Positions 1,808 through 10,722 of a stretch of DNA of 32,000 nucleotides are shown here, piece by piece. Source of the DNA: Erysipelotrichaceae bacterium (GTDB lineage Bacteria > Bacillota_I > Bacilli_A > Erysipelotrichales > Erysipelotrichaceae); the NCBI GenBank assembly GCA_030604855.1, contig JAUVVC010000006.1, forward strand, positions 67,672-99,671, written 5' to 3'. Both the position numbers and the translations under genes were made by a program. The number at the start of each line of letters is the position of its first letter. Within the stretch, counting starts at the first letter, position 1. The notes beneath the pieces were generated by a model, which was not told the origin of the DNA, made no database searches, and was given only the letters and a program-made list of their open reading frames with translations.

Positions 1808-3310
1808 ATGAAATTCAACTTTAGAGTATCACCGAACTATCGCACACCCTTATCGACACAACGTGTTATGTGGGAAGTCACTGCGGCGATCAGTGTGGTC
1901 TTGGCCTTTGCAGTATTCTATTACTTTACGGAATTGGGTACGGATTATGGCATTCATGCCGTATTGATGATCCTTACGTCTTTAGCGGTTGCGATTGGAA
2001 CCGAAGTGCTCTGGGCTTTGTTCTATAAGAAGAACATCCTCAAACATTTGAATACATCGTTCCCTTGGGTCATTGCTTTGATCTTCGTTGGTACGATGAG
2101 CATCAATCGTCCTTTATATGTTTCTGCTGTGAGTGTGTTTGCCGGGGTTTTCTTTGGTAAACTCGTCTTCGGTGGTTTTGGATATAACATCTTCAACCCA
2201 GCGGGTGTTGGTCGTGCAGTGGCGGCATTGTCCTTCAGTGGTTTTGTGACCAATAAGTTTGCGGATGTGGTTACAGGTGCGACAGCAAACCAAGTCATGC
2301 AAGGCTTGGGCTGGGTCATCACAAAGCCTGAAGCCGTTGATGCGTTCTTAAATCAATTTGGTGGTTTAAGTGGACTAGCGATTGGTTTCTATCCTGCAAG
2401 TTTGGGTGAGACCAGTACGATTCTCTTGTTGTTGGTTGGTATTTATCTCTCTGTCCGTAAAATCATCGATTGGAAGGTTCCATTGACCTTCATCGGTTCG
2501 ATTTTCATCTTTACATATGCCATTGCATTATTCAAAGGCATGGGTGTCTGGTATCCTTTGTTCCATATCGTCAGTGGTGGTGCGATGTATGCGGCGGTCT
2601 TCATGATCACCGATCCCGTCACGACACCGACGTCGAGCATCGGACGGATCTTGTTTGCGATGGGGGTTGCCATCTTCGTGGTCATCATCCGTATCAAAGC
2701 TAATCTTCCTGAAGGTGTTGTTTATGGAATTCTATTCATGAATATGTTGTCTCCTTTATTGGATCAAATCACGGATGGTTGGGTCTTTAAGGAAATGAAG
2801 AAATTCTATATTCAAATCGGTACCTTGTTTGTGGCTGGCTTGGCGGTGATCTTATTGGTCGCAAGTCAAATCTCCTACAATGAACCGGTTGTCGAAGTTG
2901 AACCTGTCGTTGTCATCAACTTGAAGGGTGAACCGGTTGTGGTATTGGCAGAAGCAGTATCGCCAACGGCTCTCGTTGTTTCTGAAACGGCTGAAGGTGA
3001 TGTTACGACTTTTGTTGTAAACATCAATGGTTATGCGTTCCAAAGCGATCACGATGATGATCCTCAACCGAATACATTGGAGATCAAGGTCAATACTGCG
3101 ACGCAAACGGTTGAAAGTGTCAGCTATGTGACTTTCTCAGATTCTCCGAATATCGGGGATAAAACGAATTCAGATGTCTTCTTGTCTCAATTTGTTGGCT
3201 TATCCATTGTGGATGAAGCCGCAAGTGTGGATGTCGTATCTGGAGCCACCATTACATCTCAGTCGGTTGTTCGTGCTGTTCGTGCCGCAATTGCAGCGGC
3301 TTTGGATTAG
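1808..3310 (+). CDS. rnfD: Rnf subunit D fused to a C-terminal FMN-binding (RnfG/NqrC-like) domain
   Basis: The 500 aa polytopic membrane protein carries the RnfD flavinylation motif ADVVTGATANQ. After the last TM (about aa 345) there is a roughly 150 aa extension ending in VDVVSGATITSQSVVRAVRAAIAAAL, a second Dxx(S/T)GAT FMN_bind-type motif. Confidence 0.9.
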   Translation: MKFNFRVSPNYRTPLSTQRVMWEVTAAISVVLAFAVFYYFTELGTDYGIHAVLMILTSLAVAIGTEVLWALFYKKNILKHLNTSFPWVIALIFVGTMSINRPLYVSAVSVFAGVFFGKLVFGGFGYNIFNPAGVGRAVAALSFSGFVTNKFADVVTGATANQVMQGLGWVITKPEAVDAFLNQFGGLSGLAIGFYPASLGETSTILLLLVGIYLSVRKIIDWKVPLTFIGSIFIFTYAIALFKGMGVWYPLFHIVSGGAMYAAVFMITDPVTTPTSSIGRILFAMGVAIFVVIIRIKANLPEGVVYGILFMNMLSPLLDQITDGWVFKEMKKFYIQIGTLFVAGLAVILLVASQISYNEPVVEVEPVVVINLKGEPVVVLAEAVSPTALVVSETAEGDVTTFVVNINGYAFQSDHDDDPQPNTLEIKVNTATQTVESVSYVTFSDSPNIGDKTNSDVFLSQFVGLSIVDEAASVDVVSGATITSQSVVRAVRAAIAAALD

Positions 3311-5053: not shown

Positions 5054-5248
5054 ATGGAAGCCGTCATTTATATCGCGGCCTTAGGTGGGTTCTATGCTTT
5101 GGTTTATTATTTGAACCACAAGACGCCGAAACCTGAGGGATGTGAATACATCGATGCGGCCTGTAATTCGTGCAGTGTAGGTATTTGCAGCAATCATCCA
5201 TCGCAAAATATCATCAAGGAGGATATGATTCATGTTGAGCGCAGTTAG
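5054..5248 (+). CDS. Small Cys-rich single-pass membrane protein (FeoB-associated-Cys-rich-like architecture)
   Basis: The ATG is 1 nt after the rnfA stop, suggesting translational coupling. One TM (AVIYIAALGGFYALVYYL) is followed by a basic linker and a CX6CX2CX4C cluster (GCEYIDAACNSCSVGICSNH). The 3' end overlaps rnfB by 17 nt. Confidence 0.5.
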   Translation: MEAVIYIAALGGFYALVYYLNHKTPKPEGCEYIDAACNSCSVGICSNHPSQNIIKEDMIHVERS

Positions 5249-5540
5249 TATGATGTTGGTCCTTGGGGCGGCTTTGGGTTTGCTCTTGGCGATTGCAGGT
5301 AAAGTCTTCTATGTGGAAATCGATACGCGTGTTGAACAGATCACGAACATGTTGCCAGGATACAACTGTGGCGCATGTGGTTATCCGGGATGCGCAGGTT
5401 TAGCCGATGCGTTGGTCAGTGGAGAGGCAAAGAGTCCAACTCAATGCAAACCTTCGACTGAGGCCCATCGTTCTCGGATCACCGCTTTCATGGAAACCGG
5501 TGTGGATCCACAAGCTCCAAAAGAGTCTGTACAAGCTTAA
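5232..5540 (+). CDS. rnfB: Rnf subunit B, minimal form (N-terminal TM plus Fe-S domain only)
   Basis: AAGGAGG lies 8 nt upstream. It has an N-terminal TM helix and then LPGYNCGACGYPGCAGLADALVSGEAKSPTQCKP, the RnfB N-terminal Cys motif. The protein ends at 102 aa with no CxxCxxCxxxCP ferredoxin repeats. Confidence 0.8.
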   Translation: MLSAVSMMLVLGAALGLLLAIAGKVFYVEIDTRVEQITNMLPGYNCGACGYPGCAGLADALVSGEAKSPTQCKPSTEAHRSRITAFMETGVDPQAPKESVQA

Positions 5541-5546
5541 TTTCTT

Positions 5547-5572
5547 AAAGATCGTGAAAGCGATCTTTTTTT
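5547..5572 (+). terminator. Rho-independent terminator after rnfB
   Basis: A 7-bp stem AAGATCG/CGATCTT with loop TGAAAG is followed by T7. Confidence 0.7.
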
Positions 5573-5621: not shown

Positions 5622-5987
5622 ATGAAGGGTGTGATTCAGGCTTATGCATTGTTGGTTGTGTGTCTGGGTGTATCGCTCGGCATGATGATTGCGGTTCAAT
5701 ATGATGTCCTATTTTATAAGCATCAGTTCATTCTGAAACAAAGCATGCAAGAAAGTATGCTGGAAAGTTTGGATCTGCCTTATCAGGAACGCGATCTGTA
5801 TACGTTCAATCGTTTAATTGAACTCTTGAGCATGCGTATGGGTTCAAATCGAAGCGTAAATGTCAGTTTGATGGGATTCAATGCACAACCCTTGGCACTC
5901 AGAGTCAAATTAAGTGTATCCGATGAGAATCACATCATCCCTTATTCCATTCATCTCGATAAAACCATGATAGAGGTATCCCCATGA
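5622..5987 (+). CDS. Pilin-like / membrane-anchored protein of unknown function; first gene of the Tad-like locus
   Basis: GTGAGG RBS. The N-terminus MKGVIQAYALLVVCLGVSLGMMIA resembles the N-termini of the two pilin-like ORFs at 9127 and 9270. The stop overlaps the next start (ATGA at 5984). Confidence 0.5.
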   Translation: MKGVIQAYALLVVCLGVSLGMMIAVQYDVLFYKHQFILKQSMQESMLESLDLPYQERDLYTFNRLIELLSMRMGSNRSVNVSLMGFNAQPLALRVKLSVSDENHIIPYSIHLDKTMIEVSP

Positions 5988-6685
5988 AACAGAAGTATTC
6001 TTTATTGCATTTCGGTGTCGCTTTAGGTTTGTGTTTACTCTTTATGGGTGGAAGCTTGTTGTACATTCACAATCAACTTGAGCTGGTGGAAGTCTATGTC
6101 GCAAGAGAAAACTTACCGGCACGGACGCACATCAGTGAGAACAGTCTATCTAAAATCAAAGTTCCCAAAGCGTATCTCAGTGAAGATGCGATTACGGATA
6201 AAGCTCAAATGTTGGGAAAATACGTCAAAATCAATGCATCGATTCCAAAGGGAAGTCTTGTGTACACTTCAACGATTGAAGCTTTGGATGAAAGCATCGA
6301 TCAACCCAGTCTTTTATTGAAAAACAATCAGGCAGTCTATGCGATTGATGTCAGTTTGACCAGTACATCTGGAAATACATTGCAGATTGGATCGAAAGTA
6401 GATATTTACGGAACTTTGAAAGTCGGACGTGAGACAAAGGTCGATTTACTTTTCAAACAGGTTCGAGTGATCAGTGTCAAAGATAAGAATGGTAATGAGG
6501 TCGATCGTAAAAGCAATCAGATGCCCAAGCTATTATTGGTTGCATTTGATCAAACTGAAATCCCGTTGATTACCAAATTGATCGCAATGGGCGAGATCAC
6601 CATCACACCAACTGCGGAGTTCTTGAGTGAGGATGAGTGTGTCCTCAATGAACATTCACTTCTATTGGAAATCCTCTATGCTTGA
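5984..6685 (+). CDS. cpaB: CpaB/RcpC-like Flp pilus assembly protein (SAF domain)
   Basis: An N-terminal TM anchor is followed by a SAF-like segment (VEVYVARENLPARTHISENSLSKIKVPKAYL...IPKGSLV) and a beta-rich C-terminal half, as in CpaB. It sits directly upstream of the TadA-like ATPase. Confidence 0.65.
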   Translation: MKQKYSLLHFGVALGLCLLFMGGSLLYIHNQLELVEVYVARENLPARTHISENSLSKIKVPKAYLSEDAITDKAQMLGKYVKINASIPKGSLVYTSTIEALDESIDQPSLLLKNNQAVYAIDVSLTSTSGNTLQIGSKVDIYGTLKVGRETKVDLLFKQVRVISVKDKNGNEVDRKSNQMPKLLLVAFDQTEIPLITKLIAMGEITITPTAEFLSEDECVLNEHSLLLEILYA

Positions 6686-7694
6686 TAACTTTGATTTTGG
6701 AGTGATTCAGTCGTATGTCGATGATCCAATGGTTACGGATATCAATTACAATGGTCGCCAATGTTGGATCGATCATCTTCGTAAAGGACGATATCCTTTA
6801 GCACCTTTTGATGCCCATGAAGCGATGCAGATACTGGTTTATAAAATTGCGAACTATGTGAATCTACCTTTCAATGCGACCAGTCCTGTCTTGGAAGCAG
6901 AAACTGAAAGTCTGCGTATCAGTCTATTGCACCCCAGTGTTTCGAAAGGGGGATTAAGCCTCTCTTTACGCAAAACACCTGCGCTCTGTCGTTTACACGA
7001 TGCAGAGACGGGGATTAAGGCTTATGCGCCGGAATGGGTGATCAGTTTATTGCAGGAAGCTGTCAGGCATCGTAAGAACATCTTAGTAAGTGGGCTTCCG
7101 GGTTCAGGTAAAACCGAATTTGTAAAGTTTCTGATGGAGAGCATTCCAGCTCAAGAACGCGTGATTACGATTGAGGATAGTCTTGAACTTCGTTATGGTG
7201 ATATCCATCCGACAAAAGATCACGTGATGCTTAAGGTTCAGGAGCGCTTTGGCTATGAGCAAGCCATCAAAACAAGTCTGCGCCAAAGACCGGATTGGAT
7301 CTGTGTCTCTGAGGTCAGGGGTGCCGAAATCATGTATCTTCTGCAGAGTATTTCAACGGGAACCAGTTTGATCAGTACAATTCATGCGGAGAGCGCAATA
7401 GCGATACCAGCGCGGATGTTGATGCTCATGCCAGGGTTTGATCTGAACAATCAAAGTCTGCTTACCATGATTCATGATTGCATCGACTTTGGCATTCATT
7501 TGGAGGTCAATCATGATGGACAGAAAGTCGTACGATCGATTCGAGAGTTGGTCCAATTTAAAATCAATGAGAACTATGAACAAGAAAAGAAAACAATCTA
7601 TCAAAGCGATGATAAAAACAAAGCCGTTCGCTACCAAAGCCTATTTGCAAGTAAAAAAGCTAAAACTCAAAGAACTCCTTTGGATCTTCAGTGA
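6678..7694 (+). CDS. tadA: TadA/CpaF-family type IV filament secretion ATPase
   Basis: ATG at 6678 (MLDNFDFGVIQSYVDDPMVTDINYNG) overlaps the cpaB-like stop. Motifs present: Walker A GLPGSGKT, Asp box ITIEDSLEL, Walker B PDWICVSEVRGAE, His box STIHAES. At 338 aa it is short and has no N-terminal accessory domain. Confidence 0.85.
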   Translation: MLDNFDFGVIQSYVDDPMVTDINYNGRQCWIDHLRKGRYPLAPFDAHEAMQILVYKIANYVNLPFNATSPVLEAETESLRISLLHPSVSKGGLSLSLRKTPALCRLHDAETGIKAYAPEWVISLLQEAVRHRKNILVSGLPGSGKTEFVKFLMESIPAQERVITIEDSLELRYGDIHPTKDHVMLKVQERFGYEQAIKTSLRQRPDWICVSEVRGAEIMYLLQSISTGTSLISTIHAESAIAIPARMLMLMPGFDLNNQSLLTMIHDCIDFGIHLEVNHDGQKVVRSIRELVQFKINENYEQEKKTIYQSDDKNKAVRYQSLFASKKAKTQRTPLDLQ

Positions 7695-8388
7695 GTTGGC
7701 TATAACCATTTGGATCGCCACACGCTTTGGACTCCCACGACAATCTATCTTTATTCTTTTCATCACGACGATCGCACTGACCCCTCTGTTCTTTCGTTAT
7801 CAATTGCAATGGATCAAACAAGAACAAGCCTTTTTCAATCTGACGGATTTTCTCCAACAATTCATTGCGAGCTTTAAGTCACACCCAAAAATATACGCTG
7901 CGCTATTGGAATGTGAGGACATCACACAACATCAATTACACAAGGATGTGAGGTTTTGGATCGAGGGACTCGAGAAGGGTGGATACCCTCAGGAACACGC
8001 CAAAGCGTTCATGGCGAAATATGGTCATTTCACTATTGGGAATATGGTGCATCTCATGTTGGCGGTGGAGAATTATGGAAGTTTCCAGTATGCCGAAGGA
8101 TTTGAAATCATTCAAGATGACATTGAGGAATGGATTGAAGATACCTATGCCTTCAAACAGGAACAAGTCCAGACGCAACGGAAGATTCAGATACTCTCCT
8201 TATTTTCAATGGGCATCGCTTACATGAGCCACAACATGCTTTTCAAATCGGATCTGGTCAGTGAACTTGGTTTCTACCATACCAGTCTGATGTTGTTCTT
8301 CGGCTTGATTCTGCTCACACTCTTCTTTGCGCAAAAGATGATCGCGGTGCCTTGGATTGAGAAGAAGGAGTTGATATGGAGCGCTTGA
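7609..8388 (+). CDS. tadB: TadB-like pilus platform membrane protein (T2SS-F domain); start uncertain
   Basis: The reading frame is open from 7474. It is a TM-rich protein with a central soluble helical domain, which fits the T2SSF/TadB layout. Candidate starts are 7513 (GGAGG 6 nt upstream), 7567, 7576 and 7609, and all of them overlap the tadA 3' end. Confidence 0.6.
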   Translation: MIKTKPFATKAYLQVKKLKLKELLWIFSELAITIWIATRFGLPRQSIFILFITTIALTPLFFRYQLQWIKQEQAFFNLTDFLQQFIASFKSHPKIYAALLECEDITQHQLHKDVRFWIEGLEKGGYPQEHAKAFMAKYGHFTIGNMVHLMLAVENYGSFQYAEGFEIIQDDIEEWIEDTYAFKQEQVQTQRKIQILSLFSMGIAYMSHNMLFKSDLVSELGFYHTSLMLFFGLILLTLFFAQKMIAVPWIEKKELIWSA

Positions 8389-9122
8389 TCTTTAGTTTGA
8401 TCATCTTAGTCTTATGGAGATTGGGTGATCCTTGGTTGAATGACCACTTGATGAACATACGCGAGAAAGACTGTGTTCGACTGGAAAATGTTCTTAAAAT
8501 CAAGTTGGACCATACCTGGATGCTGGAGCGTATCCAACGTTTGAAACATCTTCGATATGCGATTCTATTGGTCACATTCGATATTCGTTTTGCTTATCTG
8601 GTTCTCTTTGTTTGGATCTTTGTTTATAAATCACCGTATCTTCGTTTGAAACATCAAGCGCGCAAACACATTCAATTGGTGCGTTACCAATTTCCTATCT
8701 ATCTTCGTCAGCTCCAGATCCTCCTACAAAACAACACCGTTGTAAATGCGGTGGAGCAGTCGTTGGCGTATGTGCCCGAAGTGCTTAAAGACGATATCCA
8801 TGTCTTTCATTCGGCACTCTTGGAAGATTCACGTTCACTCTCCACCTACATCACACAAATGCAGGCTTACCAACTTCCTGAGATCACCCGTGCTTTCAAA
8901 TGGCTCTATCGTTACCAAAGCATTGGTTCTCAGGATGCTTATCGTCAGTTTAATCGTATGATTCTATCGACATCGAAATGGTTGCGTCAAGCACGCATCC
9001 ATCAAAAACAGAATGCCGTTGGAATATATCAATGGATGGGAATGTTGCCTCTGGTGGGTGTCACCGTGGTCTTCATTTCAGCCATGTTAAGTGTCGCACT
9101 GACACTCTTTGAAAGGGGGTGA
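8376..9122 (+). CDS. tadC: TadC-like pilus platform membrane protein (T2SS-F domain)
   Basis: AAGGAG lies 7 nt upstream and the start overlaps the tadB-like gene by 13 nt. It has N- and C-terminal TM segments flanking a helical soluble domain, and it forms the second member of a TadB/TadC-type pair. Confidence 0.6.
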   Translation: MERLIFSLIILVLWRLGDPWLNDHLMNIREKDCVRLENVLKIKLDHTWMLERIQRLKHLRYAILLVTFDIRFAYLVLFVWIFVYKSPYLRLKHQARKHIQLVRYQFPIYLRQLQILLQNNTVVNAVEQSLAYVPEVLKDDIHVFHSALLEDSRSLSTYITQMQAYQLPEITRAFKWLYRYQSIGSQDAYRQFNRMILSTSKWLRQARIHQKQNAVGIYQWMGMLPLVGVTVVFISAMLSVALTLFERG

Positions 9123-9126
9123 ACAC

Positions 9127-9270
9127 ATGAAGGCGTTTTTTGAAGAATATGGTTTGGTTTTGGTCGTAACCGTCATCGCAACAGGCATGATTACGTTCTC
9201 GGAGACATTTAAGACAACGATGCAAACAACTCTCGAAACTCAATGGTCGGAAATGACGACAGGTAGCTGA
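9127..9270 (+). CDS. flp: Flp-type (type IVb/c) pilin, 47 aa; not in the supplied ORF track
   Basis: AGGGGG RBS at about 9113-9118. Translation by hand gives MKAFFEEYGLVLVVTVIATGMITFSETFKTTMQTTLETQWSEMTTGS. The EEYGL(V/I/L) motif plus hydrophobic helix is the Flp signature (xEYGLI..). The position after tadC matches canonical tad loci. Confidence 0.6.
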   Translation: MKAFFEEYGLVLVVTVIATGMITFSETFKTTMQTTLETQWSEMTTGS

Positions 9271-9608
9271 TGAAAGGTGCATTTGAAACGGCTTTAGTGA
9301 TGTTGTTTGGCATGATGTTCATGGTTATGGGAATGGATTACATGAAGGTTGTTATGATGAATAATCAGGCACGCTTGTTGGCTGAAAGCAGTTTGGCAAT
9401 CTTGGAAAACCAAAATCGTTACGACGCAGCGGTTCAAGTCTTGATCGATCATACCAAAGACACTTGTACATCCTGCATCTTGTTGATTGAACCGCATCTC
9501 GATCATCCTGGACGTTACCGTGTCATCGTAAACTATCCGATCGAATTGAAGCATATCCGTTATCACACCATGGCGAAACTCGAGTTATTAAGCCGTCCCT
9601 TAAGTTAG
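9270..9608 (+). CDS. tadE: TadE-like pseudopilin / minor pilin
   Basis: The start overlaps the flp stop (TGATG). The N-terminus MKGAFETALVMLFGMMFMVMG resembles the TadE-family G-x-x-x-E-x-A-L hydrophobic N-terminus. Confidence 0.5.
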   Translation: MKGAFETALVMLFGMMFMVMGMDYMKVVMMNNQARLLAESSLAILENQNRYDAAVQVLIDHTKDTCTSCILLIEPHLDHPGRYRVIVNYPIELKHIRYHTMAKLELLSRPLS

Positions 9609-9630
9609 TGCAGGAATCTGCACTTTCTTT
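9607..9630 (+). terminator. Rho-independent terminator after the Tad-like locus
   Basis: A 7-bp stem AGTGCAG/CTGCACT with loop GAAT is followed by TTCTTT. It overlaps the stop codon. Confidence 0.6.
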
Positions 9631-10492: not shown

Positions 10493-10571
10493 GGCGATCG
10501 TGGCGAAGTTGGTTAACGCACCGGATTGTGGTTCCGGCATTTCGCGGGTTCGAGCCCCGTCGGTCGCCCCA
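10493..10571 (+). tRNA. tRNA-His (GTG)
   Basis: Hand-folded cloverleaf. It has the extra G-1 opposite C73, acceptor stem GCGATCG/CGGTCGC, anticodon loop TTGTGGT, T-loop TTCGAGC, and an encoded CCA. Confidence 0.9.
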
Positions 10572-10694: not shown

Positions 10695-10722
10695 TTGACA
10701 TGGTATTTTCATACGCTATAAT
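10695..10722 (+). promoter_or_regulatory. Sigma-A type promoter of the opp operon
   Basis: TTGACA (10695-10700), a 16-nt spacer, then TATAAT (10717-10722), about 30 nt upstream of the oppA RBS. Confidence 0.6.

Follow-up and report, generated by a model that had tools for sequence, protein, structure and literature searches.

Tad-like machines and a seven-gene cassette in Erysipelotrichaceae

Filament machines of the Tad/Flp type (type IVc), known from Aggregatibacter, Caulobacter and Ralstonia, are encoded in a tight operon comprising an ATPase of the CpaF lineage, a SAF-domain CpaB protein, a platform split into two single-domain paralogues and a subunit of about 45 residues, in which an EYGL core is followed by one hydrophobic helix. 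Removal of the subunit leader by an A24 peptidase is treated as a defining, universal step in the assembly of type IV filaments. The 32,000-nucleotide stretch of Erysipelotrichaceae DNA considered here (the window, in which all coordinates below are counted) contains at 5622-9608 a cassette of seven genes, g1-g7, all on the + strand, whose predicted products follow this architecture, the split platform by remote homology, and whose candidate subunit has no leader. In our interpretation this monoderm encodes in the cassette a Tad-like (type IVc-like) filament machine that is minimal, strongly diverged and probably independent of a prepilin peptidase, a reading to which we assign a probability of roughly 0.55. 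A first-pass annotation of the same DNA had proposed a compact, highly diverged Tad/Flp-like locus in a monoderm, plausibly an uncharacterised branch, and this central reading holds.

In several respects the cassette departs from the Tad/Flp pattern. Its locus has neither TadV nor TadZ, its candidate subunit has neither a leader nor a G/XXXXEY site, and in place of proteins with TadE, TadF or TadG Pfam signatures it encodes DUF4320-like and DUF5411-like proteins. Its ATPase lacks the N-terminal domains of CpaF (338 residues versus 420-500), and the absence of a secretin, TadD and RcpB is as expected for a monoderm. The Com pilus of monoderms differs in having a two-domain ComGB, whereas the putative cassette platform is split, and in having a subunit of the ComGC type (G|F...E5) rather than the Flp type.

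The Tad-like locus of the Bacillus anthracis plasmid pXO1 encodes CpaB, a ParA-like AAA/TadZ-like ATPase, a CpaF/VirB11 ATPase, two platform proteins and three 67-residue prepilins. The order CpaB, ATPase, platform, platform, small subunit is common to both loci, and among the references examined pXO1 holds the best-scoring relatives of g2 (111.7 bits), g4 and g5 (43.7 and 45.4 bits). However, the pXO1 locus is plasmid-borne, its prepilins have a 21-residue leader ending in Gly (…SSENG|MLIAL), and no relatives of DUF5411 or DUF4320 were found in the stretch examined; conversely, the cassette has no gene between g2 and g3, where pXO1 has the AAA ATPase. The second platform open reading frame (ORF) of pXO1 (6516-7262 within L086 2480-8214), which scores 40-45 bits with the g4 and g5 hidden Markov models (HMMs), is missing from the PLSDB gene table.

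Two further described systems are close to the cassette. The literature on the conjugative plasmid pLS20 calls gene 37 a 'putative VirB11', enters 36 and 38-41 under 'Unknown' and counts the module within a type IV secretion system (PMC8557374). An uncharacterised system of Roseburia, Ruminococcus and Eubacterium that combines CpaF, PilC/GspF and DUF5411 was predicted by gene embeddings (Miller et al. 2022, PMC9523054). No description of the cassette emerged from full-text literature searches on Tad, Flp or pili in Erysipelotrichaceae, on Flp pilins without a leader or on DUF4320. Bulleidia extructa is described as having a canonical tad locus of 13 genes, tadV among them; this was acquired horizontally and is another system.

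When one genome per species was scanned by alignment, relatives of the ATPase were found encoded in 427 stretches; the top 80 of these, each with 10-kb flanks, are the related loci counted below. Nearly all of them belong to Erysipelotrichaceae, a family of gut and soil (Dielma, Traorella, Copranaerobaculum, Erysipelothrix and many metagenome-assembled genomes). HMM searches on all ORFs of the 80 loci, iterated from the seven proteins of the window as seeds, recovered each cassette gene in 64-79 loci (g1 in 75), and the full order g1-g2-g3-g4-g5-g6-g7 is seen in 49 of the 80, most exceptions being contig ends. The cassette is thus confirmed as a real conserved unit, far beyond chance. Identity of the ATPase spans 43-94% across about 50 complete loci, and a gene order kept throughout the family even at 43% points to a functional unit maintained by selection.

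ATPase, CpaB-like protein, platform and candidate subunit

The four ATPase boxes are readable in g3 (GLPGSGKT, RVITIEDSLEL, RPDWICVSEVRG and TSLISTIHA), as the first-pass annotation of a short TadA/CpaF ATPase had it, and the catalytic boxes are invariant across the related loci. Pfam T2SSE matches with 96.1 bits (cut-off 24.9). In NCBIfam the top models are TIGR03819 (TadA family, 125.8 bits), VirB11 (123.2) and TrbB (111.6), all below their cut-offs, and no equivalog-level model is reached: the protein is neither an equivalog of VirB11 or TrbB (TIGR02788, 123 bits versus a cut-off of 250; TIGR02782, 112 versus 305) nor ComGA (NF041000, 64 versus 300), and no VirB genes are found near the cassette. 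Among solved structures in the Protein Data Bank (PDB), CpaF scores 70.7 bits, archaeal GspE 68.3, VirB11 63.9 and FlaI 51. In a tblastn comparison with plasmids, Firmicutes ATPases of the 'CpaF/VirB11 family' reach 105-140 bits, proteobacterial CpaF 97-122, and true VirB11 and TrbB 62-86. A crude neighbour-joining tree places the Erysipelotrichaceae and Lachnospiraceae proteins in one clade with 100% bootstrap, which joins the Firmicutes plasmid ATPases at 66-78%. The prediction of a CpaF/VirB11-family secretion ATPase for g3 is solid.

The assignment of g2 as a CpaB-like SAF-domain protein, made already in the first-pass annotation, is likewise a solid prediction. Its SAF domain scores 26.2 bits, above the Pfam cut-off of 21, while RcpC (26.4 versus 28.8) and the CpaB model TIGR03177 (54.6 versus 71) stay below theirs. 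Ralstonia CpaB matches the g2 family with a best E-value of 1.7e-6, and the score on pXO1 given above, obtained with the g2 family HMM, falls on the annotated CpaB of that plasmid.

The two platform proteins are more diverged. Neither g4 nor g5 of the window has a match in Pfam or NCBIfam, so that their description as T2SS-F-like stands by remote evidence and not by a Pfam match of their own. T2SSF is the top Pfam family among their relatives, matching 16 of 51 for g4 (best E 1.4e-4) and 12 of 45 for g5 (best E 4e-4). The iterated g4 HMM recovers g4 and g5 alike (150 matches in 79 loci), which identifies them as paralogues. An AlphaFold model of g4 (predicted local distance difference test score, pLDDT, 82; predicted TM-score, pTM, 0.73) gave in Foldseek only two compact matches, the cytoplasmic T2SS-F domains of EpsF and OutF. 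With TM-scores normalised to target length (TMt), EpsF (2vmb) gives 0.66-0.68, with a root mean square deviation of 3.4 Å over 113 columns, and OutF (5nbg) 0.64, both at Foldseek E > 1. Ralstonia TadB, searched against 9251 ORFs (those of the 80 loci with 10 kb on each side plus the whole window), had 29 matches, of which the top eight are all g4 or g5 ORFs and the best alone is significant (E 1.1e-4); when the g4 family was aligned with the same protein by hhalign, P was 7e-4, with 132 columns in the correct domain. Finally, g5 aligns to the C-terminal half of a fused 436-residue platform from Lachnospiraceae with an hhalign probability of 98%. Searched as a profile against PDB sequences, the g4 family yielded a spurious coiled-coil match to CENP-Q and nothing else. 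Four weak, independent signals (T2SSF among the relatives, the g4 model and the two comparisons with TadB) agree, and at the confidence that remote homology allows we regard g4 and g5 as a split TadB/TadC-like platform.

The N-terminus of g6 (MKAFFEEYGLVLVV) is nearly invariant across the family. The protein starts MKAFFEEYGLVLVVTVIATGMI, that is, M-K-AFFEEYG, with the EYG core of Flp in place. In an hhalign comparison with Ralstonia Flp (P = 0.0025) the alignment begins at EYG, the EYGL cores coincide (G|ATAIEYGLIA...), and only Met-Lys precedes the residue equivalent to +1 of mature Flp. A class III signal peptide with a G/XXXXEY site is not present in g6: position -1 is not Gly, Ala or Ser, and residue 3 varies between A, I, M and S across the family, with no conserved small residue. 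Pfam Flp_Fap matches 2 of 40 family members, weakly (E 0.027), and an exhaustive HMMER search of 1.84 billion representatives found 8 clusters only, all with the g6 N-terminus. By its sequence, g6 is Flp-like in its core and leaderless; the first-pass description of a Flp-like pilin is right about the core, but a normal Flp prepilin it is not. A leaderless g6 implies that the machine probably needs no prepilin peptidase.

The start of g6 is consistent among the relatives. In 71 loci the codon before the Lys is ATG (58), GTG (5), TTG (4) or ATA (4), and a GGAGG or GGGGG Shine-Dalgarno sequence lies about 5-8 nucleotides upstream in every upstream sequence inspected. An alternative start at the TTG at 9109 was rejected, since the 'KGGE' read in frame there is the Shine-Dalgarno sequence in translation and an upstream start is lacking in many loci. 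The ATA loci are of the Erysipelothrix type (L061, L062, L065 and L068) and have the Shine-Dalgarno sequence 7 nucleotides upstream; they use either rare ATA initiation or a GTG inside that sequence. Also rejected was the idea that the 'MKG' N-termini of g1, g6 and g7 represent a minimal three-residue class III leader, since none of the three families has a conserved small residue at position 3.

The remaining two proteins are g7 and g1. DUF4320 matches 23 members of the g7 family (best E 1.4e-3), while a scan of 52 g7 and 52 g1 members listed 25 families without Pfam TadE (PF07811) among them, and Ralstonia TadE has no match among the ORFs of the 80 loci plus the window. The earlier label 'TadE-like' for g7 was therefore dropped, having support neither by profile nor from Foldseek against the PDB. 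The AlphaFold model of g7 (pLDDT 87.8), with helices at 2-48 and 53-65 and a three-stranded sheet, has the shape of a pilin, and residues M1, K2, G3, F5 and E6 are invariant among close relatives. A database protein 100% identical to g7 sits on a 1.6-kb contig and adds no gene context. The single hydrophobic segment of g1 spans residues 7-25; DUF5411 scores 13.3 bits on the window protein and matches 12 family members (best E 2e-4). Residue 3 of g1 varies between G, S, A, I and T, and g1 thus has no class III cleavage site.

Taken together, the predicted components suggest the following machine. The hexameric CpaF/VirB11-family ATPase g3 would act on a membrane platform of the paralogous single-domain T2SSF-fold proteins g4 and g5, corresponding to TadB and TadC, and the membrane-anchored CpaB-like g2 would form an extracytoplasmic collar. 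The 47-residue g6, inserted N-in/C-out and carrying the Flp hydrophobic core (EYGLV...), would be the polymerised subunit; it would be translated already 'mature', with Met-Lys alone before the Flp cleavage position, and the machine would probably work without a prepilin peptidase. The DUF4320-like g7 and the DUF5411-like g1 may be accessory proteins or minor subunits, anchored by a helix, with a part in priming or tipping the fibre. Observed directly are the genes themselves, their homologies and conservation, a g6 start without a leader, and a locus in which peptidase and TadZ are both missing; production of a fibre, the identity of g6 as the subunit and its lack of processing are inferred, as is the biological role of the machine. 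This role is most likely surface adhesion or cell-cell contact, with DNA uptake as the alternative.

Gene boundaries and chromosomal setting

All seven co-oriented ORFs, and both terminator-like hairpins that the first-pass annotation had placed around them, were found again at the same positions (Table 1). The genes overlap or abut at their junctions (g1/g2 by 4 nucleotides, g4/g5 by 13, g6/g7 by 1). Between the upstream hairpin and g1 no sigma-70-like site was found, so read-through from rnf into the cassette is possible. The ORF of g3 is open upstream as far as a GTG at 6627, and that of g4 from 7474; the g4 start in the table is likely, as it gives the length of a 93%-identical database protein (P0121). 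In the clade of the window about 120 nucleotides at the 3' end of the ATPase gene (within 7474-7694) are shared with the g4 frame, and g4 is without the first N-terminal hydrophobic helix that most other lineages have; in most other lineages g4 begins 4 nucleotides before the g3 stop.

Table 1. Coordinates of the cassette genes, their boundaries and features of the flanks in the 32,000-nucleotide window
Feature	Position	Strand	Description
rnfD	1808-3310		500 residues, extra C-terminal FMN-binding domain
Cys-rich ORF and rnfB	5054-5540		64-residue Cys-rich ORF, then rnfB for 102-residue Fe-S domain alone
Terminator-like hairpin and T-run	5547-5568	+	9-bp stem, then TTTTATTTTA; after truncated rnfB, upstream boundary
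g1	5622-5987	+	121 residues, N-terminal helix anchor, DUF5411-like
g2	5984-6685	+	233 residues, CpaB/RcpC-like SAF-domain protein, N-terminal membrane anchor
g3	6678-7694	+	338 residues from ATG, predicted short CpaF/VirB11-family secretion ATPase
g4	7576-8388	+	270 residues, putative first platform protein, TadB-like, single T2SSF-type domain; start uncertain
g5	8376-9122	+	248 residues, putative second platform protein, TadC-like, g4 paralogue
g6	9127-9270	+	47 residues, leaderless Flp-like, candidate filament subunit
g7	9270-9608	+	112 residues, DUF4320-like, pilin-shaped architecture, candidate minor subunit
Terminator-like hairpin and T-run	9607-9624	+	7-bp stem, 4 GC pairs, then TTCTTTGCTT; g7 end, downstream boundary before coaX
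tRNA-His	10494-10571		after coaX
Promoter match	10695-10722		perfect TTGACA-16-TATAAT, within longest ORF of opp substrate-binding gene

Upstream of the cassette lies an unusual rnf operon with rnfC, rnfD fused to the extra FMN-binding domain, rnfG, rnfE, rnfA, the Cys-rich ORF and rnfB; downstream follow coaX (type III pantothenate kinase), tRNA-His and an opp-type transporter. The immediate neighbours are rnfB and coaX, the flanks consist of housekeeping genes, and the locus holds neither a peptidase gene nor a ParA-like one. Both small rnf ORFs are kept in more than 40 related loci. The start of the opp substrate-binding gene is probably downstream of the promoter match, at the MKKILIF... 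lipoprotein signal.

The cassette occupies a fixed chromosomal site, with rnfB directly upstream in 42-43 loci and coaX directly downstream in 46, the ancestral arrangement being apbE(-), rnfCDGEAB, cassette, coaX. The cassette of Erysipelothrix has no rnf genes beside it; apbE and ndh2-, hepT- and menA-like genes stand directly upstream, and the cassette and coaX are kept. Some Traorella loci have rnf inverted on the opposite side. A functional link to Rnf, for which the first-pass annotation had seen no evidence beyond an intriguing adjacency, is therefore rejected: the loci that retain the cassette without rnf indicate that the adjacency is inherited synteny and offers no evidence of such a link. 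The rnf-less loci (Erysipelothrix inopinata L074 2625-8889, and L061, L065, L067 and L072) have upstream of the cassette apbE(-), an LPXTG surface protein, a menA-like gene, a heptaprenyl-diphosphate-synthase-like gene and a large NADH-oxidoreductase-like gene, a region presumably akin to flavin-based extracellular electron transfer loci. A conductive pilus, considered because of aromatic residues in g6 and these flavin and electron-transfer neighbours, was dropped, adjacency being its sole support. Loci L020-L025 form another group, in which rnfB and g1 are separated by inserted genes, among them a LytS/LytTR pair and a CstA-like transporter.

Relatives, alternatives and implications

The nearest relatives of the cassette, missed by the first-pass annotation, are on Gram-positive plasmids. 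The best plasmid matches of the ATPase lead to pBatNRS213 of the pLS20 family, a Paraclostridium plasmid and an Enterococcus plasmid, all of which have the same block within conjugation operons: a 126-129-residue helix-anchored (DUF5411-like) protein, the ATPase, two membrane proteins of 240-285 residues, a 120-122-residue protein of the DUF4320 type and tandem one-helix proteins of 47-53 residues (L082 5440-9497 for pBatNRS213; L081 5389-9638; L085 3747-7574). Homology to the pLS20 36-41 module extends to four of the five non-ATPase positions of the cassette, so that homologues of genes 36, 37, 38, 39 and 40 are present in it as one block. The g3 HMM scores 209-228 bits with gene 37. The g1 HMM gives 17.4-17.7 bits with gene 36 of the pLS20 family (best reversed decoy 9.3), and the g7 HMM 18.9 bits with gene 40 and 13.7 with another plasmid DUF4320 protein (best decoy 4.5), making g1 and g7 the equivalents of genes 36 and 40, g1 in both position and sequence. 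DUF5411 and DUF4320 are matched weakly on both the cassette and the plasmid side. For the first membrane protein the g4 HMM gives about 27-29 bits (28.7 for gene 38, 27.6 in Enterococcus), and for the second, gene 39, the g5 HMM gives 25.5-29.5 bits in the pLS20 family and Paraclostridium and 14.7 in Enterococcus, with no decoy among the top seven in either case; taken together, g4 and g5 score 23-29 bits in the pLS20-family and Paraclostridium plasmids. Across the plasmid modules the g5 HMM prefers the second platform gene, with 25.5-45.4 bits in three of the four plasmids. The plasmid proteins of 47-53 residues, on the other hand, are not matched by the g6 HMM (<= 0.6 bits) and are without EYG. 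The pLS20-type modules also differ from the cassette in lying in conjugation operons with VirD4 and VirB4, in having adhesin genes upstream and no CpaB, and in the swapped order of the small gene and the DUF4320 gene.

The relative in Lachnospiraceae corresponds to the system predicted from gene embeddings (PMC9523054). It belongs to the sister clade of the ATPase tree and, like the cassette, has g7-like and g1-like (DUF5411) genes and leaderless Flp-like proteins, MTEFLQEYG and MSEMIKEYG (MTEFLQEYGKIIV and MSEMIKEYGRVIV), in which EYG occupies residues 7-9 as in g6. One of the Lachnospiraceae small proteins matches Pfam Flp1_like only from profile position 11 and thus has no leader part. The system differs in its fused platform, the lack of CpaB, the presence of two small subunits and its genomic context, with a large beta-helix/Listeria-repeat surface protein adjacent. 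In a Lachnoclostridium metagenome-assembled genome (L078 2629-9336) the locus comprises the fused platform, two leaderless Flp-like proteins of 64 and 46 residues, a 172-residue ORF and the g7-like and g1-like genes, directly downstream of an 873-residue beta-helix/Listeria-Bacteroides-repeat protein.

The plasmid relatives raise the strongest of the alternatives, unlikely as we consider it, that the cassette is a domesticated relative of the 'VirB11-like' conjugation module. It would then form a translocation or other envelope-spanning complex and no fibre, its ATPase powering, for example, the passage of DNA or protein through the wall and g6 being a small membrane subunit. The matches of the g1, g4, g5 and g7 HMMs to positional equivalents on the plasmids above reversed decoys, the grouping of the cassette ATPase with the plasmid ATPases and the presence there of one-helix proteins of similar size speak for this reading. 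However, no conjugation genes (coupling protein, VirB4 or relaxase) are found at the cassette, which is flanked by rnf, coaX, tRNA-His and opp; it occupies the same site in more than 40 species, and the fixed chromosomal position across the family indicates vertical inheritance. Moreover, T2SSF-type platforms and CpaB are hallmarks of filament machines and not of type IV secretion, g6 is unlike the 47-residue proteins of the plasmids, and published work gives no function for the plasmid module itself (PMC8557374).

With Ralstonia proteins from an annotated Tad locus as queries, neither an A24 prepilin peptidase (TadV, best E 1.1) nor a ParA/MinD-like TadZ/CpaE (TadZ, best E 0.72) was detected in the 9251 ORFs within 10 kb of the cassettes, in line with the absence of both from the locus claimed at first pass. 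An ordinary Tad pilus, with an A24 peptidase (TadV or a shared ComC) and perhaps a ParA-like organiser at another locus and with g6 cut at an unusual site, nevertheless deserves consideration, although we rate it as rather improbable. Peptidases shared between systems are well known, and mannose-sensitive haemagglutinin (MSH) loci without their own peptidase have been described (PMC6668835); comG loci are reported in Erysipelotrichales (PMC12786226), and the peptidase search covered 10 kb per side. Such processing is difficult to reconcile with g6, where the residue at -1 would be Lys, residue 3 varies and no conserved Gly, Ala or Ser site exists; g1, too, is without a conserved small residue 3, and a two-residue leader offers essentially nothing to cleave.

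The proposed machine could also serve DNA uptake (competence) instead of adhesion, which we regard as doubtful. Type IV filaments of monoderms often serve transformation, and the Flp-type pili of Micrococcus luteus reportedly do so. A chromosomal, vertically inherited, minimal system with no adhesin gene beside it in the window would be compatible with this role. Yet no comEA/comEC-like genes adjoin the cassette, the comG system reported in Erysipelotrichales is a separate one, and the related modules of plasmids and Lachnospiraceae adjoin adhesin-like genes (Tie, SpaA-like, beta-helix/Listeria-repeat). That the cassette is a decaying remnant without function is very improbable: the window proteins below curated thresholds, the loss of g2 in one clade and the missing N-terminal helix of g4 in the clade of the window are outweighed by seven intact ORFs with coupled junctions, about 50 complete ordered loci at 43-94% ATPase identity, and an invariant g6 N-terminus and catalytic boxes.

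Several observations weigh against the interpretation of the cassette as a peptidase-independent Tad-like machine. Only g2 and g3 of the window reach a curated Pfam or NCBIfam threshold, and g1 and g4-g7 reach none; searches for the families suggested at first pass gave T2SSE and SAF above cut-off, T2SSF and Flp_Fap weakly and in relatives only, RcpC below cut-off and TadE not at all. Every Foldseek E-value for g4 exceeds 0.1, and the g7 model gave nothing at E <= 1e-3 and no pilin among the top 50 matches in the PDB. The likeness of g6 to Flp is a short motif, with a phmmer E-value of about 6 beside the hhalign P-value given above. About a dozen loci are without g2, and g1 then abuts g3 (L020-L025, L049, L050, L053, L058, L059, L064 and L075). 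The absence of a peptidase comes from a single proteobacterial TadV query over 10 kb per side, and given the comG loci of the order a ComC-type enzyme may exist elsewhere in the genome. To our knowledge, every type IV filament studied so far needs leader cleavage, and a leaderless subunit is without precedent.

A conserved machine with a leaderless subunit would show that leader cleavage is dispensable, contradicting a rule that defines the superfamily, and with seven genes and a 47-residue subunit the cassette would provide a very small model system. The TXSScan 'generic' model requires profile matches to an ATPase, a platform and a pilin; since neither the platform nor the subunit of the cassette reaches curated Pfam and NCBIfam profiles, standard detection would probably overlook it, and surveys of surface appendages in monoderms may have corresponding blind spots.

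More tentatively, the cassette may belong to a distinct, peptidase-independent branch of type IV filaments with leaderless subunits, a short CpaF-like ATPase and a split T2SSF platform, to which the 'VirB11' modules of Enterococcus, Paraclostridium and the pLS20 family would also belong. If this is true, many Gram-positive conjugation systems would build a so far unseen Tad-like filament or pseudopilus for mating contact. How Gram-positive conjugation systems, which are said to lack a pilus, make mating contact is an old question that the homology to pLS20 36-41 renders directly testable. The carriers of the cassette include common gut Erysipelotrichaceae (Dielma and Traorella) and relatives of the pathogen genus Erysipelothrix, and a conserved surface fibre in these bacteria would bear on colonisation.

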